A stretch of 64,000 nt of DNA from Bacteriovoracaceae bacterium (lineage in GTDB: Bacteria; Bdellovibrionota; UBA1018): the NCBI GenBank assembly GCA_947447665.1, contig CANFJX010000002.1, positions 209,659 to 273,658 on the forward strand, read 5' to 3'. Every line of letters starts with the position of its first letter. Position 1 is the stretch's first letter. Shown here in pieces: positions 1 through 59,194 of this stretch. The notes below the pieces were generated by a model. It ran no database searches. It worked only from the letters and a program-made list of their open reading frames with translations, and had not been told where the DNA came from. Position numbers and translations under genes: made by a program.

Positions 1-635
1 GCAGTTGATAGTGTTACTCCTTCGCGTACACAAGTCATCGCATCTTGAAGTGGGCGTCGCTCAGGTCGATGGTAGTGCACGTCGTTGGTAGCGATTACTT
101 TAAGATCCCATTCTCTCGCTTTTTTTAAAGTGAGCGCGGTACGTTCATCATCCATCCCGTCGAGATAGCGAGCCAGAGAGAGCGAGAATCGCTCCTCAAA
201 TGCGGTCTTGAGTGGTCCATACTGAAGTGATTTGGATGCTGGACAAGAGCCAAGCAAACCCTTGGACTCGGTTCTCTCTAAAAATTGAAGGAACTGCGCC
301 AGGGTAAGAATCCCATGACCTTTTTCTTTGCCCTGGTGAGCGGCAGTAAGAATGCGACACATAATTCCGTAAGCCGCGCGATCTCGGGCGATGAGTGAAA
401 TCGGTGGATGATCCTGGATTTTAAGTTCGCACCCGGAGATCAATCGAACTTGAGGAAACCGTCGGGTCGCCTCATAGGCTCGGGGTAAGGCATAGACTCC
501 GTTGAGATCCGTGATGGCGATAGCAGGGATTCCCATTTCAAATGCGCGCTGGATATATTCAGCTGCATCGGAAGCCCCGCGAAGGAAAGAGAAGTTAGTT
601 TTACACTGGAGTTCAACGTACGAGACCTTACTCAT
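1..635 (-). CDS. dnaE2: Error-prone DNA polymerase DnaE2/ImuC, N-terminal PHP domain (5' part only; the gene continues beyond the window start).
   Basis: Reverse-strand translation from the ATG at 635 gives MSKVSYVELQCKTNFSFLRGASDAAEYIQRAFEMGIPAIAITDLNGVYALP..., the hallmark N-terminus of DnaE-type PHP domains. It overlaps the imuB stop by 8 nt. It is absent from the ORF track because no stop codon falls inside the window. Confidence 0.8.
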   Translation of the reverse strand, partial: MSKVSYVELQCKTNFSFLRGASDAAEYIQRAFEMGIPAIAITDLNGVYALPRAYEATRRFPQVRLISGCELKIQDHPPISLIARDRAAYGIMCRILTAAHQGKEKGHGILTLAQFLQFLERTESKGLLGSCPASKSLQYGPLKTAFEERFSLSLARYLDGMDDERTALTLKKAREWDLKVIATNDVHYHRPERRPLQDAMTCVREGVTLST

Positions 636-1947
636 AGTAACCATGAACAAAATAGTGGTGTTGGGGATCTGAGAATATCCAAAGGGTGCGTCCACCTTCG
701 AGCTCGACTTGATAGTAGTTTCGAGCATGAGTATCGTTGAGCCAGTCGAGAGAGAGGCGCTCGAGTTTTGACCAGCAAATGGATTTAAATTTTCTCCCTT
801 TAAATAAAATTCTATCTTGAATAATAGAAACGGGAACAGGGGATTTAAAAATTCGGGTAGGTCGTTTTGGATAGCGATTTTCCAAGTCGGCTTGAGGAGC
901 TCCCTTTTGGGAACTTCTCACCCAACTCTTTTCTGGTAAGCGCTCCTCTGTCGTTCTTGCCCAAAAAACATGGTTCTTGCCTAGAAACTCCTCTAGCTCT
1001 CCAAAGAGAGAGCCTAGGACTTCTTGATGGTCTAAGTGGGAGTTTCCATCTTGATTGTTAAAGAAATCTTTTTGCGTGCTTCTTCCCGCTGTGGTCGCAA
1101 GGACAGAGCATCTCAATGTGTGAACAAAAGAGTGGATCGGTGCCTGGCTTAGATCTCGGTTCAGACGTTCGCGTAAGATCGGTAAGAAGCCGAGGGTTGA
1201 GCCCTGCGGGGTGATAAGCTCAAACGTCCACTCTCTTGTAGGGTTTTTCACGGTCGAGTATTTCTCAAGCTCTATTGCAAAAGAGATTCTCTCTGCTCGG
1301 AGTGATCGACCTCGGAGCCGACTAAAGAGTCGATCCAGCATGGCTTTAGAGTAAAACAGCAATGGCTCAATTTCGGAGCAGTACTCAGAAGGTAGAAGCT
1401 CGAGCTTTTCTTTAAAGTGCTCGGGCGGATTCCAGCTCGGCCAAAGCAGGTCGGAGGCACTTTCAAGTCTCTGTCGACACAAGAGACTGAGTCCCCCAAA
1501 TCGAGAAGGGAGACTGGCAGTGGGGATTTGTTTAAACTCGGACAGAGTCTCTACCCCGAGGCTTTTGAGTGATTCAATCATCACCCGAACCGATTTTCTC
1601 CCTAAGGGGTCCACGCCGAAAGGATCAGCAAAGTCGATGAGGGCCTCGATGGGGAGTGAATTGAGTGTTGATCCAGAAGCTCCTGAATGGCGCGCCAAGG
1701 CGAGAGATGAGGGGATGTCGTGGGAGAGTGCTATTTTTGCGACCCATCCCAGGCGACGAGCAAGAGACTGCGCTCGGAGAACAAAAGAGCGATCGGAGTA
1801 GAGCGATTTACACTTACCAATTTCAATGAAAATAGCCTCGGGCTCACGTACGGAGATTTGAGGACTGAATCTGAAACACGCTTCCGCAAGCGAGTATAGA
1901 CTCGACTGAGAACTCGACTCATGGAAAAAGAGGCAGGCCACTTTCAT
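628..1947 (-). CDS. imuB: ImuB, a Y-family polymerase-like mutasome subunit
   Basis: 439 aa. Y-family/DinB-like fold that lacks the canonical acidic catalytic N-terminus. It sits in the imuA-imuB-dnaE2 gene order and overlaps both neighbours. Confidence 0.7.
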   Translation of the reverse strand: MKVACLFFHESSSQSSLYSLAEACFRFSPQISVREPEAIFIEIGKCKSLYSDRSFVLRAQSLARRLGWVAKIALSHDIPSSLALARHSGASGSTLNSLPIEALIDFADPFGVDPLGRKSVRVMIESLKSLGVETLSEFKQIPTASLPSRFGGLSLLCRQRLESASDLLWPSWNPPEHFKEKLELLPSEYCSEIEPLLFYSKAMLDRLFSRLRGRSLRAERISFAIELEKYSTVKNPTREWTFELITPQGSTLGFLPILRERLNRDLSQAPIHSFVHTLRCSVLATTAGRSTQKDFFNNQDGNSHLDHQEVLGSLFGELEEFLGKNHVFWARTTEERLPEKSWVRSSQKGAPQADLENRYPKRPTRIFKSPVPVSIIQDRILFKGRKFKSICWSKLERLSLDWLNDTHARNYYQVELEGGRTLWIFSDPQHHYFVHGYYE

Positions 1948-2501: not shown

Positions 2502-3341
2502 TTTTGATCACCCTAACTGAGTTTTCGAATGATGACAAAATCCCCATCGGGAACTCCGTCTTCGATCATCAAATGACTTGAGACTTGGCGAAACAAGGTA
2601 CTGAGCTACCTCCGCATGGGAAAAGGCAAAACCTTGTTTTCACTTAAAATCATTGATCAACTCGATGAAGTACTCTCAGTATAAGCGTAGGTTTGGCGTA
2701 AGTCCAGTTTTTCCCGGGCGGGTACGGCTGGGCTAATTAATCACTCGTGAAGAACTCTTGAATGGCACTTCCACACTCCCTGCACTCAAGGGGAGGCAAC
2801 CCCAAGAGCTTTTCAATAGTAGGTCGAATATCGAGATGACTGAGCTCGCGGCCGGTAGTCGGGGACAGAGGAGAGCTCTTCGCAGAGAGCTTGACCTTTT
2901 TTAGCTGACTCAGCTGTCTCGACGATTTTGTCGAGCATTTGAACACCGTGTGCATCAGCTCCTAAAATTTGTTTTGAGAATTGAGCATATCTATCTATTG
3001 AGGACGTAGTTTTAAATCCTAACCGCCTCGCAGAATCTACAATTTTTTCAGAGTTGACTAAAACTTTCCTGTAATATCCTATATTCAATAATATCAAACA
3101 CTTAGTTCATGACGCGGGGTCCGATGTGGAACACATCTGATCCCGCCGACGATTTAATTATCATCTGATTTCCAGAACTCATTAACCACCTACTCTCATA
3201 ACTGTAACAACGATTCGCCCTGCGATGTGCAATTCGTCAGTCCCTATGACGCCTGACAAGTGGATTCTCGTTAAAACGGTCGTCAACCTAGAACTTGGTG
3301 TCGTTCAATTGACTTTGCTCCAGCTTGTTACAATTTTTACA

Positions 3342-3698
3342 TCATGCTATTTTTGAATCTACAGGAGCAATTCCATATCCATTTAAACTTGCGTCCACTA
3401 GATGGAATATCGCCGCATCCAAGTCTGCAAATGTTTGTCTCCAGTGCTTACCGCCTCGCTCCGACAAAAAGACTTCAAAACCATCGTCGCACTTCATTAG
3501 GTAGTATGCTTTTTTGTCTCTTGGATCGCCATGCCATATTTGGTCAATTAAGTCGGCTCCGTTTCCACCTAATTTCTTGTATTCGGCAATTAGCCCTTGA
3601 ATTGAAATCCTGTCCAAAACATTAGAGCCATATTTGCTAAGCAATTCTTTCTTTTGAAGTCCATTCAAGACATCGACTAATAGACAATTTTGATTCAT
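3342..3698 (-). CDS. Small acidic cytoplasmic protein (118 aa from the M10 start), candidate immunity or partner protein
   Basis: The ORF track gives 3342-3725. An internal ATG at 3698-3696 overlaps the upstream TAA stop as TAATG, and a GGAGG motif lies 6 nt upstream. No signal peptide. The protein has balanced composition, unlike the antisense ORF 3344-3625. Confidence 0.55.
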   Translation of the reverse strand: MNQNCLLVDVLNGLQKKELLSKYGSNVLDRISIQGLIAEYKKLGGNGADLIDQIWHGDPRDKKAYYLMKCDDGFEVFLSERGGKHWRQTFADLDAAIFHLVDASLNGYGIAPVDSKIA

Positions 3699-5884
3699 TA
3701 GAAACCTCCGCCGTTGGTGATCCATGTTCTAGGGACGATTTTATTTACGTAGACTTGATGCCCACCACCCAGAATTTGTCCAACGGGTGTTGGGTTGTTA
3801 AATCTTCTTAGCGCAACTTCACCAACAACGCCTTCATAGAATTTCTCACCTGATGGTACAGTAATTTCAACCCATTTTTTTGCCGAATTACCCCAAGAGG
3901 GGTCCAAAGCAGAATCAAGGACAGCTTGATAGGGACCAGTGGGCTTTACATGAGACCAGTAGGCTGATAGTTCTTTGCCGTCAGTTGCATACACTCGATA
4001 CAGCTTTACTGGCTCTTTCGTCACAATCTCCAGATAGCTAGAACTTCTAAAGGCATCCGCTACCGTTCCCACACCCTCGGTTATTGCGTGGAGTGGACCA
4101 TGATTTATTGGATTAAACTTCTGTATACTCGCCGCAGAATCTAGCATTCTCTGCACCCCTTCAATGCCCTCACTCCTGAGAAGGGTTGAGGCAAGGTCGG
4201 GGGCTTGATCCGCCAGAGCGTTCAGGTTGGTTGCCGCTGCCGCGGTCAGAGACCCTGCACTGTCAGCGGCTAAAACCATTTCTTGAGCTGCAAAGCGATG
4301 AACGACCAGTTCTACCCCTTTTTTGAGAGCGACCTGAGTCTCTGCGGCTAGGGGACATCCGAAAATCAATCCAGTGAGATCAGCCGTGAGTTCTCCGATG
4401 ATTTCGCCTTGTGTTTCCTCATCAGAGTGGATGAACGATTGCCATTTTTCTCGGATCAGGCCTTGAACTCCACTCTGAGATTCCGTAATTGCCTTAACTC
4501 CCTCATAAATGACGTAACCCACCGCTCCAGCTGCTAGGGTGACCGTAACGGCAGGAGGCAAAATAGCTGCTGCAACGACCCCCGCCCCAACGAGCACCCC
4601 TCCTCGAAGAGCTCCCCGGGTAAATCCCTTCAGAGCATCCAAACAGGGCCTTAGCTCCGATAGGGTGTGCTTGAAAGCTGCTGAATGGCCGCTAGCTCCT
4701 AAACGATCCGCCAATAATAAGCCCACTTTCAGACTCTCGGTATGAGAGTTGAAAAAAGAGCATCCCTCAGTATCAATTGCCCCTAGGCCAGGACACTGAT
4801 CTTGGACCATGCTCTGAGCCACGATCACTGTATTTACCGCGGTCCTCACCTCAAAACCCTCGGAGCTTCTGAGAGAAGTAGTCAGCCGAAGGCCCGTGTA
4901 ATCGACTCCGGGTAAATTGTGAATCAGCCCTTGATCATTCAGGATCCCGCGATCGATGAGTTGTTTTTCGATATAGTATCCGGAATTTTGGGTCACCCCA
5001 TCCTTGCTGTTTAGAAATGACTGAATTTCAGACAAAGCCTCTTCGACTGCGTCTAAATGTCTGGAACGATCCGCCCCGCTGAGAGCCTCCACTAACTGGG
5101 TTACGCTCTCATTGAGAATATCTTTAGGATGAGTCGCTCGTTTTGGGTCAAAGCCTCGAGCCTCCTGTTGCCAGACTGAAGCAGCTAAATTCGCTGCCTG
5201 TGGGCGCCGCTCTTGGACGATTTGCTGCTGCCGTTCTTCCATCCTGTTTGAAAATCGAAGGTCCCCGAAATCTCCGGAGGGTGTAACTCCCCGAGGTATT
5301 CCACTTCCGCCTAAGCCTGAGCCAACTGGGGTCAAACTCGCCTTGATGCCTTCTGTGTTTGCTCGTTGCACTCGGTTTAGCTCTCTACTCCAACCCTCAC
5401 GAGCAGCGTGGGAAGCTACTGCACCCCATCCCGAAGTGTCTTGGGACGGAGGCGAGATCATCCCTCCGGCAGGAGCATCTGTCGATCCTTCGTTCGTGGG
5501 CGCAGTTTGTGCTGGCAAACCTGGAGCTAGATCACGCAAATCAAAGCTGGCAGGGATATTCTGCCGCAGAGGGGTAGACTCCCCTGTATGCCGCGGAATT
5601 TGTGGGTTGGTCAGGCAATGACTAAAATAGTGTTCGACGGTGATCGCTCCTTCAACGGAGCGATGCTGAACCGACTGCTCCCAGCAAACCCGATCCACGC
5701 CTCGAAAATCTACGGTCCTTGGATCTTGGATGTATTCCTTATCCCCTCCCCTTTCGATAAAATATCGAATATCATCCTCGACGGCGTGAGAGGGCAGACT
5801 CGATAATCCGAATGCGAGCATCAAAATCGATGTAATTGACAGAGGTGTTCTACTCTTCATTTTTTTGTAAATTTTAGCTACCAT
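3698..5884 (-). CDS. Secreted 728-aa protein with a signal peptide, a central glycine-zipper segment and a C-terminal domain of unknown function
   Basis: N-terminus MKSRTPLSITSILMLAFGLSSLPSHA is Sec-like. The central segment GALRGGVLVGAGVVAAAILPPAVTVTLAAGAVGYVIY is a glycine zipper. The C-terminal ~130 aa (LYRVYATDGKELSAYWSH...GGGHQVYV) matches no family I can name. Confidence 0.65.
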   Translation of the reverse strand: MVAKIYKKMKSRTPLSITSILMLAFGLSSLPSHAVEDDIRYFIERGGDKEYIQDPRTVDFRGVDRVCWEQSVQHRSVEGAITVEHYFSHCLTNPQIPRHTGESTPLRQNIPASFDLRDLAPGLPAQTAPTNEGSTDAPAGGMISPPSQDTSGWGAVASHAAREGWSRELNRVQRANTEGIKASLTPVGSGLGGSGIPRGVTPSGDFGDLRFSNRMEERQQQIVQERRPQAANLAASVWQQEARGFDPKRATHPKDILNESVTQLVEALSGADRSRHLDAVEEALSEIQSFLNSKDGVTQNSGYYIEKQLIDRGILNDQGLIHNLPGVDYTGLRLTTSLRSSEGFEVRTAVNTVIVAQSMVQDQCPGLGAIDTEGCSFFNSHTESLKVGLLLADRLGASGHSAAFKHTLSELRPCLDALKGFTRGALRGGVLVGAGVVAAAILPPAVTVTLAAGAVGYVIYEGVKAITESQSGVQGLIREKWQSFIHSDEETQGEIIGELTADLTGLIFGCPLAAETQVALKKGVELVVHRFAAQEMVLAADSAGSLTAAAATNLNALADQAPDLASTLLRSEGIEGVQRMLDSAASIQKFNPINHGPLHAITEGVGTVADAFRSSSYLEIVTKEPVKLYRVYATDGKELSAYWSHVKPTGPYQAVLDSALDPSWGNSAKKWVEITVPSGEKFYEGVVGEVALRRFNNPTPVGQILGGGHQVYVNKIVPRTWITNGGGF

Positions 5885-5919
5885 AAATAAAAATCCATAG
5901 ATAAACTGATTGTCCTGGC

Positions 5920-6867
5920 CTACATCTGTGTTCTTGCAAAATTAATCCCATCTTCATGAATTCGATCTAACTCCTCTTGAGTCATAGGGATCACTCCTAA
6001 TAACCCAGGTTCGCCAACTACATTTTGGAGCATGGGCCTAATGGTCTCCCAATTCGGTAGTGGATCTGGCTTAAAATTCGCGTGGAAAGATAAGATTTCC
6101 CAATATTTCCTCCAAACGCGCTTGATTGGTGGGGGCGAGTTCGTATGGAATGCTGTGATTGCTGTCATTAGCAGTAAGTTGACTTCTCCCAATTCCTCAC
6201 GCTTCAAGACGGATGTTAGAATTTTAAAGTCATCCACCATTCCAGCAATGTTAAAACCGGCTCGACCTAAAAATTTTCCACATGCGACACCCCGTAATCC
6301 TGTTTCTGTTCCATCACCTCGGGTCGACCTAATTCTCTGCTCTGCCATTCTTCGGACCAGCCTAAAGTCATGGCGATTCATCCGCTCTCTCTCAAGAGAC
6401 TCTGTCCTTAGGTTCTCAAAACGGATTAATTGTTGAATCGCAGGCGCAATCTCAATTGAGCAATTTTGAAATTGCTCCAGATTAAAAACAAGTCCTTCGG
6501 CTCTTGGAATTGTGACCGCTTTTTCACCTCTAGGAACTCGTCGAACTAACTCGAAGTTCCTGATTTCATTTCTTAGAATTCCAAAATGCCGGTCTGTGTC
6601 TCTGATGAGAGTAGCGCTTCCTTCTTTCCCTTCAGACATCAGGTGACTGAAAGACTTTGTTTGAGGCGAGGCAGATGGGGCAGGATGGATCCTTTCCGAC
6701 AAAACGGTGCCAGAATTAAGGGCATCGACGGACAAACCCAGAATAAAATGATCTGGCTCAGACCTGAAGGTTAACTGTTCAGTCACAACGCGATCTGCGT
6801 AACTAGAAAAAGCCTCGCCGAACAAAACAGCAGAACACATTAAAAATCTATTCAAGCTTTTAATCAT
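5920..6867 (-). CDS. Secreted hypothetical protein (315 aa)
   Basis: N-terminal hydrophobic signal MIKSLNRFLMCSAVLFGEAFSSYA. Tightly packed in the operon. Confidence 0.55.
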   Translation of the reverse strand: MIKSLNRFLMCSAVLFGEAFSSYADRVVTEQLTFRSEPDHFILGLSVDALNSGTVLSERIHPAPSASPQTKSFSHLMSEGKEGSATLIRDTDRHFGILRNEIRNFELVRRVPRGEKAVTIPRAEGLVFNLEQFQNCSIEIAPAIQQLIRFENLRTESLERERMNRHDFRLVRRMAEQRIRSTRGDGTETGLRGVACGKFLGRAGFNIAGMVDDFKILTSVLKREELGEVNLLLMTAITAFHTNSPPPIKRVWRKYWEILSFHANFKPDPLPNWETIRPMLQNVVGEPGLLGVIPMTQEELDRIHEDGINFARTQM

Positions 6868-6883
6868 ATTAAAACAAATTCTT

Positions 6884-8182
6884 TCATTGCAAGGCTCTTC
6901 CGATAAGCGATGGTTTTAATGACTCCCATGGATCACTCGTCAATCGCGAAAACAATGCGTCGCCAATCACGAGGCTAGTCCAAAAATTCTGCAAAACACT
7001 ACCTCTGTCGATCACTGGTTCCCGAAGTTGAAAAAAATAGGGGGCAATCCCCTGTTTAATGAAAAGAAAAGATGCTCTACTTTCCTGCTGACGAATCGAA
7101 TATGACTTATCTAGTTCTGTGAGAACAGCGTCCTCAAGGTGTGGGAAGTAAGAGTCCTCTAAATCACTCATCAGCTCACTCCATCGATTTTTTAAACCTT
7201 GCCAATCTCCCTTGATACTTTCCACATAGGCTACTACCTGATTCAGGTGCTCCGAGTTGAGCTCCAGTGCAGCTTGAATCTTAGGTTCGAACTCAGGAAG
7301 CAAAAAATCTTCGCAAACCGCAGTAATCAGTAAAAGTGCGCCTTCATCGATTGCACTTATGGCGCGGATCTGGTGTTGTCGAATCTCCTGAATCAGCTCC
7401 CACTGACGGCTGATCTTGCCCGATTCGATTGCAGAATCAATCGAGCTCCAAACAGCTAGAACCGCAACAGCCACGACTGCGCCTACTGGTCCAGCTGCAG
7501 AAGTCGCGACCAAACCCTTCAGTACTCCAAGTTTGACTGCAGTACCAGCGGCGGCACCGGCGAGTGATCCGACAACACCCTTCGCATTGGTTCCGCCCTG
7601 AGAATGAGCCTCGCCTGCCGAATCTATTGAGATGGTGCAATCTTCTTGTGGAGGCAGAAGAGCAGCTAGATTAGGCAGTACAAAGATCTTCTTAGGTTGA
7701 TTGCGATCGAGAGCCCACTGCAATCGGTCGTTTGCGCATCGGGTTTTCCAAAATTCGGAGATTGAACTCAGATCGCTTCTCACGTTTCGAAGCGTAACAA
7801 GCTCATCTTCGAGATCTTTTTGGATGAGGAGTATTTTTAATACACTTTCGGAGAAAGATGCAGGTGTAGCCCGCATGATTTCTTGCATTTTTAGATCCCA
7901 ATTATTTTTGAGCTGCTCAGATTTATTTGAGGCAGTCTCTTGCATTTCTAACAGGATCTGAAAGGCGTCCCAGTAGTCGGATAACCGCTGTAAGAAATGG
8001 GTCTTAATATCTGATTTAAACTTTTTATCTACGTAATCCTTGTAGCTAACTTTGGTCTCATGGAGAATTTCTGATAAGAGCGTAATATTATCATCTAATT
8101 TGTCGGCAAAGGCAGGGGTAATTGTGTTGGAATTTAATGAAATACAAATAAAAATTGCGATTATTTTGTTTTTATTTTTCAT
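6884..8182 (-). CDS. Secreted coiled-coil and glycine-zipper protein (432 aa), paralogous in its central domain to the 728-aa protein
   Basis: Signal peptide MKNKNKIIAIFICISLNSNTITPAFA. The glycine zipper GVVGSLAGAAAGTAVKLGVLKGLVATSAAGPVGAVVAVAVLAV is followed by ESGKISRQWELIQEI, to be compared with ESQSGVQGLIREKWQSF in the 728-aa protein. Confidence 0.6.
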   Translation of the reverse strand: MKNKNKIIAIFICISLNSNTITPAFADKLDDNITLLSEILHETKVSYKDYVDKKFKSDIKTHFLQRLSDYWDAFQILLEMQETASNKSEQLKNNWDLKMQEIMRATPASFSESVLKILLIQKDLEDELVTLRNVRSDLSSISEFWKTRCANDRLQWALDRNQPKKIFVLPNLAALLPPQEDCTISIDSAGEAHSQGGTNAKGVVGSLAGAAAGTAVKLGVLKGLVATSAAGPVGAVVAVAVLAVWSSIDSAIESGKISRQWELIQEIRQHQIRAISAIDEGALLLITAVCEDFLLPEFEPKIQAALELNSEHLNQVVAYVESIKGDWQGLKNRWSELMSDLEDSYFPHLEDAVLTELDKSYSIRQQESRASFLFIKQGIAPYFFQLREPVIDRGSVLQNFWTSLVIGDALFSRLTSDPWESLKPSLIGRALQ

Positions 8183-8188
8183 ATTTTT

Positions 8189-10162
8189 TTAATTTCCAGC
8201 CAAACTCGTCAATACACTGAGGTGGAGAGATAATCTCTGAATTGCGTCCTCTGGAGTAATCATTTTAAAACCGGTAATCACAGATGCGGGTGATACTAAT
8301 GCGGAATTGGGAATCAATTTCCTAACCTTTTCGATTTCGACTGTTTTCTGGTTTAAAAATAAAATATCAAAATTGGCATAAGCTGATTGGATAGCGATTA
8401 AATCTCCGAAAATTTTATCGAACCAGCCAAAAATATGAAAAAACCGGGATGAATGAGTCCGATCTAAAGCAACTCTTTCTGGATTTGGAGCCACCAGATC
8501 CGGAGATATGACTTCGGATCTGACATGATCTGGAACGGTTGAGTTGTAGCTTGGAAAGATATCATACTTAGCTTTTATGTTTTTAGGATCTCTCAAATCA
8601 GGATTGCCCAAGCAGACTGGGATCTCGAAATGACTTGTAAAATTAATAATTTGATCTTTAAGTCCTTCAGTTGCCTTGTTGTATTTTAAGCACTTTTGGA
8701 GTGATTGATGGAGACTCGATTTAAAAAAACTATCCACCTCGAACAGAGAGTCCTCCAATTGCTTTTTGATCAGCGTCAGATCGGGATGCGCATGATTAAT
8801 CTCTCGCATTGCCTCTAAAAGGGGTTCGGCTACCTGCAACAATTGATCACGCGAAACCACCGCACCTGGGACGTTTTCCTGTTCAGTAAGTGGCCGGACC
8901 AAGTGGCGGTCCCAAGCTTCAATCAAGGCTGCTCCCCGGGCCAGGAGGATGGGATTAATCTCCTCTGCAAGAAATTGAAGCTCTCCCGTAAAGATGTCAT
9001 CACTGTCTTTCCGAGAGAACAAATGGGTGATGCTTTCAGAAACGAGGAGCCGGAGAATCCGAGACCAGTGAAACTGAAACCAACTTCGAGCCACGTCAGT
9101 TCTCATCTGCTCCAACTCGTAAAAGTCTCGCACTACGGACCCTCGAGTTAACTCGAAACCCGCATCAAGGAAATTTTGATAGTATTCGTAATTTCCTGGC
9201 ACGGAAGGTCCAGGAGTACCGGACGGTCCTACCCCTAAACTCGAAGGGCTCGGGGTGCTAGAATCCACCTGACCACAGGCTCCTGGGCCCAGCTTCTTCG
9301 TGCCAAGGACTCGCCAACAAGAATCGCCGTCACCCCCTTGGCCAGGCCTTCCCTCGTCGCCCACTGGACCGCCTTCGCCTCCTGCTCCGCCTAATCCGGG
9401 AGAAGATTTTACGAAATTTAGCTGGAGCTCGCTTACGGTCTTTTTGGAAGTGAGAAAAACAATCGGAACTGAGCCACCACCCTTGCCTCCTGGGCCACCT
9501 TGGCCTCCCTGGCCTCTTTGTCCTGAATCGCCCCCATGGCCTGCTTCCCAGCTCCAAACAAGCCCAACCCAAGCCTTCTCGCCTCGGCCACCGGCGCCAC
9601 CGGTGCCACCCTTTCCACCGGTGCCACCTTGACCGCCTTTTTGTCCAGTTCCATCAATCGTTGGAGTTCCGATGACTTCAGCCGCAAAGACCAAAATCGG
9701 ACTTGGGGAGGCCTTTGCTGAAGGTCCAGTATATCCTGTGGCTCCAGTCCCTCCTACTCCCCCCTTTTCTCCATCATGCGTGCGCTCGCTTGATACATTC
9801 CTACAGGAATCACATCCAGTGGATCCTTGAACACCCACTGCAGGCATCAAATGGTTCCGCGCCATGGGGAGAGAATAAGCCTTAATCGTCGCGCCAGCCT
9901 TAAACTCAAGTCTGCGGGTATCGATCAGGAGCTGATGGCCCCGAGTCACAATGGTCCCATTAATGATGACTTCATCCGCTTTGATAACCGTGGGACCGGT
10001 CAAAACGTAAACTGGATTTCCCAATGTGACTCGATCATGCGACCTTCTCATTGCGCCTGAAAAATCTTCGAATTCGCTGGGGGGTGGCAGCTCAACACAC
10101 AACGCTTGATGTACCATTGTGAACCAAGCGCACGCCACCGTCCAAACGCTGAATTTACTCAC
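8189..10162 (-). CDS. Secreted bacterial collagen-like protein (657 aa): N-terminal beta-rich segment, several interrupted (G-X-Y)n runs, C-terminal helical domain
   Basis: Runs such as GEKGGVGGTGATGYTGPS, GQKGGQGGTGGKGGTGGAGGRGEK and GLGGAGGEGGPVGDEGRPGQGGDG keep Gly at every third position. The 8-bp start/stop overlap with the upstream gene is another sign of operon packing. Confidence 0.65.
   Translation of the reverse strand: MSKFSVWTVACAWFTMVHQALCVELPPPSEFEDFSGAMRRSHDRVTLGNPVYVLTGPTVIKADEVIINGTIVTRGHQLLIDTRRLEFKAGATIKAYSLPMARNHLMPAVGVQGSTGCDSCRNVSSERTHDGEKGGVGGTGATGYTGPSAKASPSPILVFAAEVIGTPTIDGTGQKGGQGGTGGKGGTGGAGGRGEKAWVGLVWSWEAGHGGDSGQRGQGGQGGPGGKGGGSVPIVFLTSKKTVSELQLNFVKSSPGLGGAGGEGGPVGDEGRPGQGGDGDSCWRVLGTKKLGPGACGQVDSSTPSPSSLGVGPSGTPGPSVPGNYEYYQNFLDAGFELTRGSVVRDFYELEQMRTDVARSWFQFHWSRILRLLVSESITHLFSRKDSDDIFTGELQFLAEEINPILLARGAALIEAWDRHLVRPLTEQENVPGAVVSRDQLLQVAEPLLEAMREINHAHPDLTLIKKQLEDSLFEVDSFFKSSLHQSLQKCLKYNKATEGLKDQIINFTSHFEIPVCLGNPDLRDPKNIKAKYDIFPSYNSTVPDHVRSEVISPDLVAPNPERVALDRTHSSRFFHIFGWFDKIFGDLIAIQSAYANFDILFLNQKTVEIEKVRKLIPNSALVSPASVITGFKMITPEDAIQRLSLHLSVLTSLAGN
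9170..9780 (-). repeat. Low-complexity GGN/ACC-rich coding repeats, e.g. ccaccggtgccacc units, that encode the collagen-like G-X-Y tracts
   Basis: The visible reiteration of ccaccggcgccaccggtgccaccctttccaccggtgccacc gives rise to spurious Pro-rich antisense ORFs. Confidence 0.6.
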
Positions 10163-12515
10163 TTTCGATCTCCTCTTGATTCTGGCTAAAACTGCCTAAG
10201 TCGCCCTTGGGTCCATCCGGATTCACAGGCCCTAGGGTTCCTGCTGGCAGCTCGAAGCTCCGCGTTTTAACTTGGGGTAAGATTTGGTGATCTAACAGGT
10301 CCTTGGCAGCTATTTGTTCCTGAAGAGCAAGAAGGGCTTGCTCGGCACGCGCACGAATACAATCTAAATTGATTCCTGGGCAAACTCGATTGAGTTTTTG
10401 AGCCTGTTGCGTGGGAGAGAGGTAGCTAAAGTCTTCCTTGATAAACACTTGAATTGTCGGATCCGTCTCAGACTTTCGTGTAGCCGACTCAAACAGGAGG
10501 CGTAGGTCATGAATAGATGGATTGTCTAAAAAATGATCGCCACTAGCGGTCGAAGCCTCAGCAGATCGCGATAAACTCCATCGCCTAGTAAATTGAATAA
10601 AAGTAGCTAAATCCAAGTCCGTAGCGTCGCCATCACCACCTCGTCGCGCAGGCACGGCCCTTTGTCCTGAACCACCTTGGCTCTCTAAGATAGGAAAAAA
10701 ATTCACTCGGGGCGCCTGGTCTGCCCCTCCAGGCCCAGGTCTCAATCTTACCCTGAGGCTACCACCAGAATAACCTTTCAAGGCTTTCGCAAGAGCAGCT
10801 CGACCCGGTTGGGCTTCTTTTTCGATCACATGGAGAACAAAATAATAGGTTCCCTGGCCCCTGGAGAAATCAGGATGGTTCACCTGGAAACCTACGATCA
10901 ACGGAAACGTGATCGCAGCATCTTCTTTTAGGGGACTCTCTGCGGGCAAGTCCGGATGCTTTAGGGCTGAGCTCAGATCAAATAAGGATCCATCGATTTG
11001 TGTAGTCACCCAATCTAAGCTCACATCAGGAGCGATGATAGCAGAGTCAAACGGCATATTCACTGTGGGTGTCTCTAGTTCAACCCGGGTCGGACCGACC
11101 GCTCCGTCAACAAAAGTGCAACCGCGCTCTTCTATTAGATGGGCTAAGTCTGCGGCATTTCCGACTGAAATTCTCCTTGAGGGAATACCAGCAGCATCCA
11201 GCGCACCACAAAACGATTGAATGGAAGCAGTCGTTGGGTGGAGATAGGCATTCAGTCGAAAGGTTAAAATTCGGTCAAGCAGAGTCAAGCTTGCAGGGAC
11301 CGGTAAAACGGGGACAGAGGCTAGTTCAGGAAATGCTACACTGGGCATGACTCGCTGAATTCTCAGTCGAAACCACATTGCATCCAACGATTGATGCGTA
11401 TATCCGCTGGGTAAGCTCTCCAAAAACTCAGAAATCGGCTGATTACTTCTCTGTAGTTCAGTCTCATAGCGTCGGTACAAGTCCTCAATCCAAGCAAGAG
11501 CGTGAACTGATGAATGGACAGGACTCAGTTTTCTCTCGATCTCTCGCAAGTCCATAAGTAAATTCCATCCCAGTCGAAGTTTGGAATATACCTGCTCTTT
11601 TTCAGTAGGTTCTCTTCCTCGATTCTGGAGTAGTTCAGAAAAAAAGGCCTGCTTCAGTCGATCGAGAAATTCGTTCAGTTGATCTTGTCTTAGGTTTAGA
11701 AAAATAGACTCGCTCGAACTCATGAAAAGTTGTATTAAATTGGAGAATCTAAATTTATTCAAAAGTAAGTTAAATGTTTCTGGGCTTTTAATGATGGAAT
11801 CAAGAGTCCTGTTTAGAAAATGAACATGCCCCAATTTTTTTAGATGAAATTGGACCAGTGAAATGACAAGAGAACTATTAGGGTTCTCTTCGGAAAGCAG
11901 GGACTCGACTACTTTTTGCCAAGTTGGAGCTGAAAAAATTCCAATCAACTCTCGCCAGTTAAGATTTTGATTCAGCTTTGATTCTTCAGTCAATAATTCT
12001 GCCAAATAGGTGGAATTCTCAAGAAGATCGATTGGATCCTGTTGACGGACTAATTGAGTGTTCAGCTCGGATAGAATTGCGCTCAGCGCATCAGGTGATA
12101 GAGGCGTGGTACATTTCTTAAGTGGCTTTAATAAGTAAGCTAGACCGTGAGCATGAGTGCGAGCAACCTCTCCAAAGGATTGGAAATGCTCGATTTGGCA
12201 AGAAATCGAATGTAATTGAAAAAGTTTATCTCGATTGTCGGGCTCAAGCTGGTCTAAAATATTTCTACTTAGAACCTCGCCCCAGAACTTAGACCACCCA
12301 AAGTCTGCTGGAATACTTTTTTTAATTCTGTCTAATGCTTGTGATCTCTCTTGGTTATTGGAGGCTTTTCTTAAAATATAGATTGCAGTATCTGCATTGA
12401 ATGTAGGGTGCACGCTGACGCCAACTAAGCCACGGCTGCAGCTAGTGGCAAAAAAAAGCGTTAGAACACATGGATAAATCAGCTGAAACAATGTAGTTTT
12501 TAAATCCATTTTCAT
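10155..12515 (-). CDS. Large secreted or lipoprotein-like hypothetical protein (786 aa), first gene of the operon
   Basis: N-terminus MKMDLKTTLFQLIYPCVLTLFFATSCS is a signal peptide with a possible lipobox. The rest is mostly helical with no recognisable catalytic motif. Confidence 0.6.
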   Translation of the reverse strand: MKMDLKTTLFQLIYPCVLTLFFATSCSRGLVGVSVHPTFNADTAIYILRKASNNQERSQALDRIKKSIPADFGWSKFWGEVLSRNILDQLEPDNRDKLFQLHSISCQIEHFQSFGEVARTHAHGLAYLLKPLKKCTTPLSPDALSAILSELNTQLVRQQDPIDLLENSTYLAELLTEESKLNQNLNWRELIGIFSAPTWQKVVESLLSEENPNSSLVISLVQFHLKKLGHVHFLNRTLDSIIKSPETFNLLLNKFRFSNLIQLFMSSSESIFLNLRQDQLNEFLDRLKQAFFSELLQNRGREPTEKEQVYSKLRLGWNLLMDLREIERKLSPVHSSVHALAWIEDLYRRYETELQRSNQPISEFLESLPSGYTHQSLDAMWFRLRIQRVMPSVAFPELASVPVLPVPASLTLLDRILTFRLNAYLHPTTASIQSFCGALDAAGIPSRRISVGNAADLAHLIEERGCTFVDGAVGPTRVELETPTVNMPFDSAIIAPDVSLDWVTTQIDGSLFDLSSALKHPDLPAESPLKEDAAITFPLIVGFQVNHPDFSRGQGTYYFVLHVIEKEAQPGRAALAKALKGYSGGSLRVRLRPGPGGADQAPRVNFFPILESQGGSGQRAVPARRGGDGDATDLDLATFIQFTRRWSLSRSAEASTASGDHFLDNPSIHDLRLLFESATRKSETDPTIQVFIKEDFSYLSPTQQAQKLNRVCPGINLDCIRARAEQALLALQEQIAAKDLLDHQILPQVKTRSFELPAGTLGPVNPDGPKGDLGSFSQNQEEIESE

Positions 12516-12596: not shown

Positions 12597-13304
12597 ATGA
12601 GAATTTTTAAACGAATTAATTCGAGTGAAAGCATGAAGATTTTTATTTTCATAATATTTTGCACCATTCTTGGTCCAGTAGTCCAAGCCGAAGACCTACC
12701 TGTTGCAATTAATTTAAACGAAGAGATTCCACAGAAGCTGATCTATGGCGATGTTTTTATTGGGCAAAGCATTGAACCTAACCAGCATAAACTTAACTCT
12801 TACATTCAGTATAGTTCAGGTACTAACAGTCCCCAGTACTCGCTCACAGGTGCTAATTTAGGTTCAGATTATTGGCTTCTAAATTCACTTATGGTTGGTA
12901 TGAGTCTAAATTACTATTCAAGTTCTCCACTTTTACTTCAAGAAGTTCTCAGTAATGAACTCCGACTCAATGCAGTTTCACTTAAATATTACAGCCCAAA
13001 ATTCGGAATCTACGCCCATTTGGGGTATGTCCCACTTCAGGGGATCTTCAATCTATTTGAGAAGTTTGTAATTAAATCGAGTCTCATTGTGGGACTCGGT
13101 TTAGGGACGACCCAATATAGTGATCACGCATTTTATCCAGGCATAAAGATCTTTATCGAAGAAAGACTCCTTCTCTACAAAACATTTGGAATTAGCTTGG
13201 GTATTACGCATTTCTGGGAAGGAAACCATCCTCAACTGGAATCTCAAAATACTCATTGGTTAAGCAGGGATCAAGTGGTTTCGGGGGTCTACCTTGAACT
13301 CTAG
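12597..13304 (+). CDS. Small secreted protein, probably an outer-membrane beta-barrel (235 aa; the start may be the internal Met at 12633)
   Basis: Signal peptide MKIFIFIIFCTILGPVVQA. Alternating hydrophobic pattern. It is divergent from the secreted operon across an AT-rich intergenic region. Confidence 0.5.
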   Translation: MRIFKRINSSESMKIFIFIIFCTILGPVVQAEDLPVAINLNEEIPQKLIYGDVFIGQSIEPNQHKLNSYIQYSSGTNSPQYSLTGANLGSDYWLLNSLMVGMSLNYYSSSPLLLQEVLSNELRLNAVSLKYYSPKFGIYAHLGYVPLQGIFNLFEKFVIKSSLIVGLGLGTTQYSDHAFYPGIKIFIEERLLLYKTFGISLGITHFWEGNHPQLESQNTHWLSRDQVVSGVYLEL

Positions 13305-13818
13305 AATTAAAACCACTTTAACCTTAGGGCTGACTGCATTCTTTCTTCTCGGGGCGCTAGACGGCTTTTCCTCCCAAGAAAGGGCCAACTTAGACCTGGG
13401 TCGCCTCATGAATGCCCAAAAGAAAAGCTACCTAGAAAGGAATTGGGATGCATTTTTTGGGACTGCTCAAGTGTATCGGCTCGCTTGGTGGAACGAGGTT
13501 CCATCCGTGACGCTGATCGCCCTCGAAGCTCTGGCGCTCGCTCGTCATTGCCGATATGCAGAGGCTGAATTGCTCATTGCCACCTTGGGTTCTCATTCAA
13601 GCGCCCGACGTGGTGAAACGGAGGCCATCCAGCAAGTCAAACACCTTCTGACTTCTGTTAAAAAGTTAGGCATCCAGGCACAAGAGAATTCCTCTCTCCA
13701 TATCTCGTCGAGAGCTAATCCCGAAGTATTTTGGCCGATCCAAAACTTATCACTTTGGAAGCGTTTACCGCCCACTTCCTTCCGTGTGCATATGGAGAGT
13801 AAATGTCGTTTAGAATGA
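13294..13818 (+). CDS. Secreted helical-repeat (TPR-like) protein, 174 aa
   Basis: Signal peptide MNSRIKTTLTLGLTAFFLLGALDG. Overlaps both neighbours. Confidence 0.5.
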   Translation: MNSRIKTTLTLGLTAFFLLGALDGFSSQERANLDLGRLMNAQKKSYLERNWDAFFGTAQVYRLAWWNEVPSVTLIALEALALARHCRYAEAELLIATLGSHSSARRGETEAIQQVKHLLTSVKKLGIQAQENSSLHISSRANPEVFWPIQNLSLWKRLPPTSFRVHMESKCRLE

Positions 13819-15773
13819 ATCTCATTCGATTGGCTCCTCTAGTGTTCGGCGCCTTTTCTCCGGCCTGGGGAGTCGCTCTCCCTTCGGTGGATGACGTCCG
13901 CCCTCCGGTCAAGGCGTCAGACACGATCTCATCAGCTTCCGCCCTTCTGGCGGCAGGGGAGCCAGAGCAGGCGATTACCATTTTAAGGGCGATTTTTTCT
14001 TCCAAAAGGGCAGGAGACATTCGGTTTAATGCGGCTCTTCTTTTGGCTTCATTTGGCCCAGGCACGAGTGCCTTCCCTGATCGTGCCGTTTATGCAGAAT
14101 TTGTTCTGAGTCATCCTCTGGCTGTCAGCAGGTTAAAAAATTCAGATCGAATTCGACTCCTCAGGAGCGCAGGACTCGGTTGGTTTAGTTTGGCGAGATG
14201 GCCCGAGGCCTCCCTCTCGTTCGAAAAGCTGCGGAACCTCGGAGGACCTGACGATGGCTCCCTCTCCGAGCTTCATCTCGGCTGGATTGAGTTGAACCAA
14301 AAGAATCCAAAGCTAGCTCTGCAGCGTTGGTTAAGTTTTCTCGGTCATCACCAGCATGAGGTCGATCAACCATGGGGACCCACGCTCATCCGGGACCTGG
14401 GTCATGTCTGGATTGAAGCTGGAGGGTTCCCGCCCGAGGTTGGTGAGCAAATCGACCGACTCATCCAAAGTCATGATGAACTCAAATATTTCCGGGAGGG
14501 GATGTCACAAGGACTAGGTTTGATTCCTTTGGATTCTCCCACATGGGCCAGTTTTCGGGGCTCAGCATTAAAAACTCGTATGAGTCGCCACCTAGCGGAT
14601 TTACTCCTCAAAAACCCTGAGGCAATCGAGTCACATCCCTGTGAAATCTTAGACTGGATCAAGCAGGACGGCTCCATCGGAGGCGGCGAAACTCAGGGTC
14701 AATTATTTGTCTCGCTCCAGAACTGCTTAAAGTCCCCTGGGATTACCGAAGGGGAAAATCGCAAAGTACTACTCACTTTATTGCATCCATGGATGTCTCA
14801 CCTCAGGAAGAGCTCGGGCATTTCGATTGAGGATCGGAGATTCGCTCTTCTTCATATTTTTTATCTTCAAAATGAACCAGACCTCAAAAAGAGGCAGGAG
14901 TGGTTAGAGAAATTTTACCCCAGCCCATCGGAAGTCAAAATCCTTAAGAATGGCCCAGTAGCTCTCCTGTGGTTGGAGGTTCTGCAAAGGCGCGCACATG
15001 ACGAAGATACTTCAATGATCAGAAAGTCATGGATTGATAATTTTTTAGAGAATCCGAGTCAATTTGAATTTGTACCCATACCTCCAGATGACCTCACACT
15101 CATTGCCTTGCAAATCAGTCAACAAGAACAAGTTTGGCTCCCGATCTGGAATTATCTCAATCGACTTGGGACAAAGATTTTCACTTCAGAAAGGGTTTTG
15201 GGATCACTTCACGTTTGGCTAACTAGCTTCATTTCACGTGCATTCTTGGACGGAAGCCTTCCGCCTGAGCCGTCAGTTGAATCGATTACTCAACCCTATT
15301 TTAATATCGTTCGATTTTTTATCTATTTGGAAAATCAATTTAACCAAAGTTTACAGCCCAGTGTTGAGTCTGACTTAGTTGGAGCATCCTGCCTAAAGGA
15401 TCATCTTAACGCTCAATTTAACACTCAATCTAGTCCGATATTTTCGGCCTACCATAGTACACGCGATGGCATAACTAGTTTAAAATCTGCATTAAAAATA
15501 AAAATCAAATTAGAATCTTCGCACTTCTTTAGCGACTTAAAAAAGCAAATAAGTTTCATCAAAAGTGGCTCATTATTTCTAAGAAAGGCTGGAATTTTAT
15601 TTCCGCCTGTCAAGCAAACCATGGCGAAAGTGTCAAATCTATATATTGACTCAATTCGATCTAACATTCAAGCGATAGAAGCACCCAATGAGTGGTCAGT
15701 GCCTGATCAAGAATCTTGGCGTGCCCAAAGGAAGCAGATTGCAGATGGCCTAAACGAGTGGAGAGCTGAATGA
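13803..15773 (+). CDS. Secreted 656-aa protein with an N-terminal TPR-like region
   Basis: Signal peptide MSFRMNLIRLAPLVFGAFSPAWG. The helical-repeat N-terminus includes AITILRAIFSSKRAGDIRFNAALLLASFG. Confidence 0.55.
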   Translation: MSFRMNLIRLAPLVFGAFSPAWGVALPSVDDVRPPVKASDTISSASALLAAGEPEQAITILRAIFSSKRAGDIRFNAALLLASFGPGTSAFPDRAVYAEFVLSHPLAVSRLKNSDRIRLLRSAGLGWFSLARWPEASLSFEKLRNLGGPDDGSLSELHLGWIELNQKNPKLALQRWLSFLGHHQHEVDQPWGPTLIRDLGHVWIEAGGFPPEVGEQIDRLIQSHDELKYFREGMSQGLGLIPLDSPTWASFRGSALKTRMSRHLADLLLKNPEAIESHPCEILDWIKQDGSIGGGETQGQLFVSLQNCLKSPGITEGENRKVLLTLLHPWMSHLRKSSGISIEDRRFALLHIFYLQNEPDLKKRQEWLEKFYPSPSEVKILKNGPVALLWLEVLQRRAHDEDTSMIRKSWIDNFLENPSQFEFVPIPPDDLTLIALQISQQEQVWLPIWNYLNRLGTKIFTSERVLGSLHVWLTSFISRAFLDGSLPPEPSVESITQPYFNIVRFFIYLENQFNQSLQPSVESDLVGASCLKDHLNAQFNTQSSPIFSAYHSTRDGITSLKSALKIKIKLESSHFFSDLKKQISFIKSGSLFLRKAGILFPPVKQTMAKVSNLYIDSIRSNIQAIEAPNEWSVPDQESWRAQRKQIADGLNEWRAE

Positions 15774-16036
15774 AAATTCTATCGAAAATGGCGATTATTT
15801 TCGTACTTTTTGTCTGCACAGCTGGACTGGTAATCCAAACCAAGGCTCAACCGCCTCAAGAAGAGGTTGACCTAGGGATCCTATCGGTTGAAGGCAGCAT
15901 TCGCTACCCAAGTTTCCAGGTGATCGAAAACCCTGAAACCCTCAGGAAGGTAACTCGCGAAGCATTGGGCCGTGAGCTGACTAGAATTGAGGAAGAAGTA
16001 CTCAGGTCTTGCGGGAGTGAAAATGAAACTGAATAG
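15770..16036 (+). CDS. Small secreted protein (88 aa)
   Basis: ATGA overlap with the upstream gene. Hydrophobic N-terminus MKILSKMAIIFVLFVCTAGLVIQT. Confidence 0.4.
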   Translation: MKILSKMAIIFVLFVCTAGLVIQTKAQPPQEEVDLGILSVEGSIRYPSFQVIENPETLRKVTREALGRELTRIEEEVLRSCGSENETE

Positions 16037-17120: not shown

Positions 17121-17150
17121 GAATAATTATTTTAGGAGGACAGTAATTTT

Positions 17151-17795
17151 ATGATTAAGACGTTGTTTGATATTTTTCTTTTTTTGGGATCTGAGTGGGT
17201 TTTGTGGATTTTGGGAGGTTGTAGCCTTCTTTGTATTGCAGTGATTTTTGATCGTAGACGGGCGATTAGCGCTCAGGATCGGGTTGGAGAGAGGCTTTGG
17301 GCGGGTGCACTAAGAGTTTGGGTTACGGATCAGGTTCCTGCCGACTGGGCACTTCAGGCACCTGAGTTTTTGAAGCGGTATCCTTGCGTAGAAGCTAGGC
17401 TCCTCAACTCGTTAGCCAATCGAAATCGTATCACTACCGGTGATATTGAAAAGATCAGCCTAAGTGTTTTAGCCGCCGAAAGATTAGAGTTAGAACGAAA
17501 CCTGGCAATCCTAGGTACCCTTGGAAATTCTGCCCCATTTATCGGTCTTTTTGGAACCGTTCTGGGAATTATCAAGGCTTTTTCGCAACTCGATCAGGCC
17601 GCCAGCGGAAGCGGACTTAATTCAGTGAGCGGTGGCCTAGCTGAGGCGTTGGTCACGACCGCGGCAGGCCTTTTAGTTGCCCTTCCGAGTGCGATAGCAT
17701 TCAATTACTTTCAGCGTAAAATAAAAGCGATTTTCTCTAGATCCATGAGCATAGCTGGTGCAGTGGGCTCAAGCCACAAAGAGGAGCGAATATGA
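17151..17795 (+). CDS. exbB: MotA/TolQ/ExbB-family proton channel
   Basis: 214 aa, three TM segments. Motif GTLGNSAPFIGLFGTVLGIIKAF is typical of ExbB/TolQ. Confidence 0.85.
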   Translation: MIKTLFDIFLFLGSEWVLWILGGCSLLCIAVIFDRRRAISAQDRVGERLWAGALRVWVTDQVPADWALQAPEFLKRYPCVEARLLNSLANRNRITTGDIEKISLSVLAAERLELERNLAILGTLGNSAPFIGLFGTVLGIIKAFSQLDQAASGSGLNSVSGGLAEALVTTAAGLLVALPSAIAFNYFQRKIKAIFSRSMSIAGAVGSSHKEERI

Positions 17796-59109: not shown

Positions 59110-59194
59110 GCGGTCGTGGTGGAATTGGTAGACACGTACGTTTGAGGGGCGTATACCGAAAGGTGTGACGGTTCAAGTCCGTCCGGCCGCACCA
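59110..59194 (+). tRNA. tRNA-Leu (anticodon GAG), type II with a long variable arm and encoded CCA
   Basis: Hand-folded. Acceptor GCGGTCG/CGGCCGC. Anticodon stem TACGT/GCGTA with loop TTGAGGG. T-arm GACGG-TTCAAGT-CCGTC. 3' ACCA. Confidence 0.85.

Follow-up and report, generated by a model that had tools for sequence, protein, structure and literature searches.

Two proteins encoded in a single gene string may contain similar segments because a module was duplicated within the string, or because each protein arrived at the same physical solution by its own route, and a locus in Bacteriovoracaceae bacterium raises this question in a direct form. The locus lies in a stretch of 64,000 nucleotides (nt), positions 209,659 to 273,658 of the forward strand of contig CANFJX010000002.1 (assembly GCA_947447665.1), the whole of which we refer to as the window. 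On the minus strand at 3342-12515 there is a string of genes encoding proteins of 786, 657, 432, 315 and 728 amino acids (aa) followed by a small open reading frame (ORF), and both the 728-aa and the 432-aa proteins contain a segment rich in glycine, alanine and valine with a polar stretch behind it. The original prediction regarded these as copies of one membrane-inserting or oligomerising module. We find that the segments are probably independent hydrophobic elements, without detectable homology, that belong to two components of one conserved toxin cassette. What the locus holds is a rare and unannotated polymorphic-toxin cassette, the toxin of which carries a new pre-toxin module.

Likeness and descent of the two segments

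Both segments occur verbatim as they had been quoted, and there are true GxxxGxxxG runs in both proteins. In the 728-aa protein the segment GALRGG...GYVIY together with ITESQSGVQGLIREKWQSF covers aa 424-484 (nt 4433-4615), and the run is G420/G424/G428 followed by G429-G433; in the 432-aa protein GVVGSL...VLAV together with AIESGKISRQWELIQEI covers aa 202-267 (nt 7382-7579), with G205/G209/G213 and then G219-G223. The glycine zipper motif is given as (G/A/S)xxxGxxxG (Kim et al. 2005, as cited in PMC10240207), and each segment has at least one GxxxGxxxG within a hydrophobic, helix-forming stretch. Their combined content of glycine, alanine and valine is 73% and 65%, the two highest values for 40-aa stretches among the 52 window ORFs of at least 150 aa, the next hydrophobic stretch of this kind in the window reaching 53%. 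In local alignments across the window the two segments score highest with each other, at a Smith-Waterman score of 52 compared with 45 or less for other ORFs. Since they are present verbatim, are the top two stretches by this measure of composition, and are mutual best matches, the segments are real and compositionally unusual.

The score of 52 is explained by composition, because it becomes ordinary when each part, hydrophobic or polar, is shuffled on its own. A global shuffle makes it mildly unusual (z = 3.1), and the segment-preserving shuffle reduces this to z = 1.29 (p = 0.12); for the hydrophobic parts alone the value is z = -0.15, and for the polar tails alone z = 0.23. BLASTP with composition adjustment reveals no significant similarity between the 728-aa and 432-aa proteins, and its best alignment (E = 2.4) lies outside the proposed register. 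Comparison by hhalign of the 432 family (seven members, alignment A1) with the 728 family (11 members, alignment A2) gives a probability of 0.55% and aligns only the signal peptides, while limiting the comparison to the two modules gives 0.3% (E = 0.19), here too outside the proposed register. At the DNA level the only repeat between the two regions is a single 17-nt chance match (82%) encoding AAG(A/P)VG.

The polar stretches said to follow immediately and to be similar are present as strings, but 5-6 residues intervene and the stretches have no motif in common above chance. The shared ES(x)G...R(x)xW(Q/E) pattern that had been proposed does not hold, as the E-to-W spacing is 13 residues in the 728-aa protein and 7 in the 432-aa protein, 6 apart, and the 432 family does not keep the 'ES', the residues at E253/S254 varying from member to member (IEA, DVS, NAS, AYV and others). 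Each family has a signature of its own: Q260-W-x-L263-xx-E-I-R-xx-Q271 (QW.L..EIR..Q) in the 432 family, and E468...G472..G475....KWQ.F.....E..GEI.GE.T....GL..GG in the 728 family, with E468, G472, G475 and KWQ.F being conserved within that family only. The architectures differ as well: the 728-family element is a hairpin of fixed length (48 columns) that turns at LP(P/E), and the 432-family element is an insert that varies in length (41-60 aa). Because the alignment is insignificant and the similarity is one of composition, the proposed duplication of a paralogous module is refuted on its own terms. Stretches rich in glycine, alanine and valine align by composition alone, and calls of duplication need composition-matched controls.

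The 728-aa toxin, the 432-aa protein and their cassette

Homologues of both proteins were obtained solely through an exhaustive HMMER search with the concatenated 432-aa and 728-aa proteins as the query, which 554 library representatives match at E <= 1e-10. Some ten (~10) relatives of the 728-aa protein have aa ~243-583 in common with it (alignment A2), and members of this family also start with signal-like N-termini. P0023 and P0031 retain the C-terminal domain of the window protein; the alignment with P0014/P0029, P0020, P0052 and P0105 holds over aa ~243-583, beyond which they diverge. Most of the 150 matches listed cover only the C-terminal domain (aa ~575-728), and a Pfam scan of 50 carriers places PT-TG directly upstream of it in 29, with Fil_haemagg_2 in two others and DUF637, RHS_repeat plus DUF6531, and PT-HINT in one each; the Fil_haemagg_2 and DUF637 carriers are of the CdiA type; the carrier P0002 adjoins an eCIS_core gene. 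Because the C-termini vary on a shared centre and the C-terminal domain recurs on unrelated scaffolds, we identify the 728-aa protein from its sequence as a polymorphic toxin, with a conserved central domain and a swappable C-terminus.

The toxin domain has the conserved pattern YR...P.GP.Q..D.AL...N...GGG.Q, in which the R of YR and the Q, D, N and GGG.Q positions are invariant. It also forms the C-terminus of phrog_24213, a PHROG of unknown function (E = 4.9e-10), one of two PHROG matches in the cassette, the other being a weak tape-measure match over the 432-aa insert. In an AlphaFold model of the 728-aa protein built from a 35-sequence alignment, the predicted local distance difference test (pLDDT) score of the toxin domain is mostly 83-96, with lower blocks at aa 651-670 (67-70) and aa 691-710 (49-61). 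The top Foldseek match of the full-length model in the PDB is the NAD(P)+ glycohydrolase Tne2 (6b12_A; probability 1.00, E = 0.05), with a target-normalised template modelling (TM) score of 0.59 and a root-mean-square deviation of 4.5 Å over 120 columns, and a fungal NAD glycohydrolase (NADase), 8r15_A, is further down the list (E = 1.0). The predicted fold thus suggests a domain that is likely, though unproven, to be NADase-like, of the Tne2/TNT-like type, whose palm-domain fold Tse6 also has; we keep to 'likely' because sequence-level support is absent. Tne2-like domains are already known on RHS and type VII secretion system (T7SS) toxins (PMC10539506). A Foldseek search of the same model against viral structures returned no significant match.

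Upstream of the toxin domain lies a conserved helical pre-toxin domain that holds a conserved cysteine pair (C364/C375) and the motifs LLLADRL, KWQ.F and GEI.GE.T....GL..GG, and the glycine-rich segment forms part of it. By its residues the element reads as a helix, an LP(P/E) turn and a second helix: G420xxxG424xxxG428...G433.G435 is followed by a turn at L442-P443-P444 and by a helix ending Y457..Y460, and G420, G424, G435, L442-P443 and Y457/Y460 are invariant in the six closest members of the family. In the AlphaFold model the N-terminal 250 residues have low confidence, aa 250-430 are helical (pLDDT mostly 70-95), the hairpin at aa 432-470 falls below 50, and aa 471-583 are mostly at 50-80 with a dip below 50 at aa 507-513. 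We note also that codon 414, just before the hairpin (4643-4645), is TGT in the window, giving a cysteine, where six other same-species assemblies and nearly all family members have a tyrosine in a conserved 'PY'. The Cys414 allele is found in one other sample (L008, protein P0004), to which the window allele is identical.

The 432-aa protein has six relatives at full or near full length with 22-42% identity (alignment A1), and two cysteines, C149 and C290, are invariant on either side of its insert. The first half of the insert is amphipathic, with G205xxxG209xxxG213 and the lysines K217 and K222, and aa 223-245 make up the other half, a hydrophobic helix free of charged residues. Across the family the aligned region (aa 195-250) is 41-60 aa in length, with insertions and deletions and poor conservation of sequence, and each member has 3-9 small-xxx-small motifs at positions that are not conserved. 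The AlphaFold model, from a seven-sequence alignment, shows very long helices in a bundle (24-103, 107-146, 235-293 and 298-387) with a mean pLDDT of 71, in which aa 170-249 are the only internal part of low confidence (23-37). Foldseek of this model against the PDB gives nothing significant, the best match being a coiled-coil microtubule inner protein (E = 0.19), and PDB sequence searches with the protein yield no match. The weak match to phrog_167, a tail length tape measure protein (E = 0.0027; aa 185-354), extends over the Gly-rich insert and the next helix and is probably compositional; tape measure proteins have also been discussed as glycine-zipper channel formers (PMC10240207).

Signal-peptide-like N-termini are present on all five large proteins of the cassette, none of which has a Pfam or NCBIfam match. 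The 657-aa protein has a conserved beta-rich N-terminal region followed at aa ~131-277 by period-3 glycine repeats (GGxGGxGGxGG...), the glycines of which are invariant in all four aligned homologues; in the gene the repeats lie especially at nt ~9330-9770, and DNA repeat family D1 is at 9351-9646. From the sequence this looks like a repeat of the polyglycine-II or beta-helix type, and the protein could serve the cassette in binding or as a structural part. The small ORF of 118 aa is called in every assembly of the window species and has no signal peptide. It matches no family in Pfam, NCBIfam or PHROGs and has no similarity to the ORF that follows P0002, and small ORFs also follow the toxin gene in L011, L015 and L017. 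From its position only, we take the 118-aa product, a cytoplasmic protein, to be a candidate immunity protein. A scan for promoters and terminators gave results at background level.

The order 786-657-432-315-toxin (728-like)-small ORF recurs on several unrelated metagenomic contigs, and the 315-like gene is always between the 432-like gene and the toxin gene. The related genome in L009 has the same cassette order and the same flanking genes, L012 and L013 have the same order with different flanks, and L010, L011 and L014 have it on shorter contigs; a distant contig, L017, contains a 657-like fragment and genes for 438-aa, 310-aa and 682-aa (toxin) proteins, and then a 117-aa ORF. The window species is known only from metagenome-assembled genomes and metagenome assemblies, freshwater samples among them. 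Scans of a one-genome-per-species set of 185,579 species with the 728-aa protein and with a three-sequence alignment found no relative, a metagenome scan with the 657 family found nothing beyond one contig that was already known, and k-mer-indexed protein searches with the 728-aa and 432-aa proteins returned only the queries and one C-terminal relative. The cassette is thus seen in metagenomes only, and it is rare and wholly unannotated. We infer that the envelope is diderm only from the neighbouring ExbB/ExbD genes and the lipoprotein.

Two of the distant loci show other arrangements. In L018 the 432-like and 315-like genes are followed by a gene for a 178-aa lipoprotein (3077-3613, plus strand) with its own Gly-rich hydrophobic stretch (AVFVSFGFAMAGLLGSLLAPSGSSTQAILFGGGLTMAGVELGCGVI); this slot holds no 728-like toxin, and an RHS/Ntox10 toxin lies ~7 kb beyond the lipoprotein gene. 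From this single case there is a hint that a protein encoded downstream, and bearing a Gly-rich hydrophobic segment, acts as partner to the 432/315 pair. In L015 a 390-aa lipoprotein with a Gly/Ser-rich centre (229-1401, plus strand) precedes the 728-family toxin P0020, with no detectable 432-like or 315-like genes before it, and two similar small ORFs of 132 and 85 aa follow the toxin gene; these may be an immunity gene and an orphan copy.

Table 1. Positions in the window of the cassette genes and of the parts of the 728-aa and 432-aa proteins.
Feature	Position	Strand	Basis
786-aa predicted lipoprotein (lipobox ...FFATSC), first cassette gene	10155..12515	-	ORF
657-aa secreted protein, second cassette gene, invariant GGxGGxGG repeats	8189..10162	-	ORF and homologues
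432-aa secreted helical protein gene (family A1)	6884..8182	-	ORF and 6 homologues
Signal peptide of 432-aa protein, aa 1-26 (...TPAFA/DKLDD)	8105..8182	-	AFA/D site conserved in family
Gly/Ala/Val-rich hydrophobic insert of 432-aa protein, aa 202-245	7448..7579	-	Kyte-Doolittle, family alignment
Conserved helix after insert, aa 246-275 (SSIDSAIESGKISRQWELIQEIRQHQIRAI)	7358..7447	-	Q260, L263, Q271 invariant
315-aa (or 306-aa) secreted protein gene	5920..6867	-	ORF
728-aa predicted Sec-exported polymorphic toxin gene	3698..5884	-	ORF; homologues common over aa ~243-583, C-termini differ
Signal peptide of 728-aa protein, aa 1-34 (...LSSLPSHA/VEDD)	5783..5884	-	sequence; h-region aa 17-35
Conserved helical pre-toxin domain, aa ~251-583	4136..5134	-	alignments A2, A6, A7; AlphaFold
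Glycine-zipper hydrophobic hairpin, aa 420-461	4502..4627	-	fixed length, conserved G/LP/Y
Polar helix after hairpin, aa 462-484 (EGVKAITESQSGVQGLIREKWQSF)	4433..4501	-	family alignments
C-terminal toxin domain, aa 584-728, alpha/beta	3701..4135	-	homologues, AlphaFold, Foldseek
Small ORF, 118 aa, candidate immunity gene	3342..3698 (or to 3725)	-	ATG overlaps toxin stop (ATGA)

Just downstream of the toxin cassette, at 628-2501 on the minus strand, are imuA (NF033429, E = 2.8e-8) and an imuB-like gene, and where contigs of this species extend further a DnaE2-type PHP polymerase comes next, giving a typical SOS mutagenesis cassette. On the other side (12597-17795, plus strand) four divergent ORFs of 235, 174, 656 and 377 aa, without Pfam matches, are followed by an ExbB gene, with ExbD after it in the syntenic locus L009. 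Because the four ORFs are syntenic in L009 but absent from the more distant L012, they are neighbours of the cassette and not part of it. Just one RNA gene was detected in the window, a tRNA-Leu (GAG) at 59110-59194 (plus strand).

Possible roles of the segments

The original prediction had itself considered that the segments might be plain signal-anchor helices, and this they are not, as each protein carries a signal peptide of its own at the N-terminus, apart from the segment and with an AxA-type cleavage site (aa 1-34 in the 728-aa protein, aa 1-26 in the 432-aa protein). The maximum Kyte-Doolittle value over 19 residues is 2.19 for the 728-aa hairpin and 2.09 for the 432-aa insert, and the segments contain uncharged runs of 26-33 residues. 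A crude Hessa-type sum comes to about +3 kcal/mol per 19 residues; this is a marginal value, similar to that of the signal-peptide cores of the same proteins, and falls short of a strong stop-transfer signal. The hydrophobicity is kept in all seven members of the 432 family and in 8 of 10 members of the 728 family, and the pLDDT falls below 50 exactly over both segments within otherwise confident helical models. Hydrophobicity and context together make it plausible that these are membrane-active glycine-zipper segments.

A working scheme can be put together as follows. The 728-aa toxin would be exported by Sec, and its Tne2/TNT-like NADase domain would have to reach the cytoplasm of a target cell. 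Because its insertion hydrophobicity is marginal and comparable to that of a signal-peptide core, the hairpin could pass through the producer's own Sec translocon and stay available for later insertion; and because an NADase-type domain needs the target cytoplasm and the hairpin stands directly upstream of it, the hairpin is the obvious candidate for a translocation element. Most likely it would insert into the target membrane and help to carry the toxin domain across, with the Tde1 glycine zipper and the transmembrane helices of Tse6-type effectors as precedents (see below), and the 118-aa product would neutralise the toxin in the cytoplasm. The central insert of the 432-aa protein would also be membrane-active, and that protein may be a subunit of a pore or translocon, or a partner that shields or packs against the toxin hairpin. 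The likeness of the two segments would then reflect a shared physical need, for helix packing through small residues and for hydrophobicity low enough for Sec, and would be a matter of convergence and not of descent. A bolder version, in which the 432-aa insert and the toxin hairpin co-assemble, by helix packing through small residues, into a pore by which the NADase-like domain enters a target cell, as parts of an undescribed toxin-delivery apparatus in an uncultured diderm lineage, we consider unlikely.

Several points weigh against this scheme. The NADase assignment goes back to a single match of the predicted fold, with E = 0.05; the Pfam TNT family (PF14021) matches neither the window protein nor any of 50 homologues, and a profile search of PDB sequences gave only chance matches to single-stranded DNA-binding proteins (E >= 0.27). 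The case for membrane insertion is made from hydrophobicity and context only, and the role of the 432-aa protein as a pore or partner is speculative because it has no significant structural neighbour. No route of export across the outer membrane is evident among the cassette proteins, given their lack of Pfam matches. In two distant members of the 728 family, P0031 and P0105, the Kyte-Doolittle value of the hairpin region is only 0.59 and 1.18; because these versions are far less hydrophobic, and one of them, P0031, shares its toxin domain with the window protein, strong hydrophobicity of the hairpin is not obligatory. The alignments, of seven and 11 sequences, are also shallow, so that a very old homology may have escaped them.

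That last point bears on whether the module was after all duplicated in the cassette and has diverged beyond the reach of sequence methods. The two genes share an operon and co-occur in every cassette that has a 728-like gene together with the upstream genes, the segments are mutual best matches in the window with a z of ~3.1 against the global shuffle, and a helix with W and Q follows both; yet the signal is gone under separate shuffling, the hhalign probabilities are 0.3-0.55%, the architectures and conserved positions differ along with the spacing and the unconserved 'ES', and there is no DNA repeat, so that true but ancient paralogy seems to us very improbable. The compositional bias could instead be that of flexible low-complexity linkers with no role in membranes, a reading to which the pLDDT values of 23-48 and mostly coil conformation of both segments would lend themselves, as would the variable length and sequence of the 432-family insert and the polar versions of the hairpin region in P0031 and P0105. 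Disordered linkers are normally polar, however, and few stretches of either protein are as hydrophobic as these segments, whose hydrophobicity both families largely keep; since the six closest 728-family members also show no variation at the Gly, Leu-Pro and Tyr positions, we regard such linkers as quite unlikely.

If the segments do enter a membrane, it could be that of the producer, where they would serve as stop-transfer or hairpin anchors of proteins that face the periplasm and are not released. Long uncharged stretches that exceed 2 on the Kyte-Doolittle scale, in Sec-translocated proteins, are what such anchors would look like, and the want of an evident outer-membrane route in the cassette is in keeping with it. 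This explanation seems doubtful nonetheless, as the insertion estimate is marginal, a cytoplasm-acting type of toxin and a cytoplasmic immunity candidate make sense only if the toxin leaves the cell, and a single span would split the invariant C149 and C290 of the 432 family between two compartments. Independent hydrophobic elements in two components of one toxin cassette therefore remain our preferred account of the two segments.

Most polymorphic toxins pose the question of how a domain that acts in the cytoplasm gets across the membranes of its target cell. In this cassette a glycine-zipper hairpin of fixed length stands directly before swappable toxin domains in a protein predicted to be exported by Sec and not linked to the type V (T5SS), type VI (T6SS) or type VII secretion systems, and the toxin is always accompanied by four exported accessory proteins without known domains. 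If the hairpin, perhaps with a 432-like partner, mediates entry, the cassette would offer a compact and genetically separable model of glycine-zipper toxin translocation, and an unannotated pre-toxin module would be added to the catalogue of polymorphic-toxin parts.

Comparison with known systems

MafB of Neisseria, with MafA and MafI, and SitA of Myxococcus, with SitB and SitI, are Sec-exported polymorphic toxins that come with immunity genes and with exported or lipoprotein accessory genes. The window cassette resembles these in having a toxin with a signal peptide, a conserved N-terminal part and a variable C-terminus, an adjacent immunity gene candidate and accessory genes; it differs in that no similarity to them is detected by Pfam or NCBIfam matches, and in having four accessory genes, all without known domains. 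Members of the ClyA family (ClyA, Hbl/Nhe and XaxAB/YaxAB), alpha-pore-forming toxins, are secreted bundles of long helices with a hydrophobic membrane-inserting element in mid-sequence, and the layout of the 432-aa protein, with long helices and a central hydrophobic element, is similar. Foldseek gives E = 1.0 for ClyA (6mrt_A; TM 0.16/0.22) and E = 1.4 for HblL1 (7nmq), both ranking below generic coiled coils, and there is no sequence match. Because these matches are insignificant, we treat the likeness to ClyA as a lead and not as membership.

The domain closest in position to the 728-aa module is PT-TG (PF14449), which stands directly upstream of the same toxin domain in the 29 carriers noted above and, like the hairpin region, is a short, Gly-rich, partly hydrophobic helical element. 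The 728-aa module differs in being part of a far larger conserved helical domain of ~330 aa. As a candidate PT-TG domain the middle region of the 728-aa protein gave no Pfam match at E <= 1, and hhalign against a profile built from the co-carriers gave 2% over 18 columns, so that we do not class it as PT-TG.

Among toxins with a glycine zipper, the T6SS DNase effector Tde1 has GxxxG motifs that are needed for membrane permeabilisation and translocation into prey, and not for secretion (Ali et al. 2023, PMC10240207). The likeness, drawn by description, is that of GxxxG motifs repeated outside the catalytic part of a toxin, an antibacterial one in the case of Tde1. Tde1 travels through the T6SS with Tap1 as its adaptor, and its zipper is at the very N-terminus, whereas the 728-aa protein combines a Sec signal peptide with a hairpin in its interior, and the surroundings of the cassette show no T6SS genes.

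Transmembrane domains of effectors have been implicated in translocation, as proposed for Tse6-type effectors (PMC7773334). The 728-aa toxin differs from the Tse6/Tne2-type (prePAAR) effectors in having no PAAR/prePAAR motif, Eag chaperone or T6SS context, and its likeness to Tne2 (PDB 6B12) is at the level of the predicted fold only (E = 0.05), with no match in sequence. What it has in common with them is the overall plan, in which hydrophobic helices precede a C-terminal NAD(P)+ glycohydrolase, here a likely one, with the target cytoplasm as its site of action, and a small immunity gene, here a candidate, lies downstream (PMC7773334, PMC10539506).

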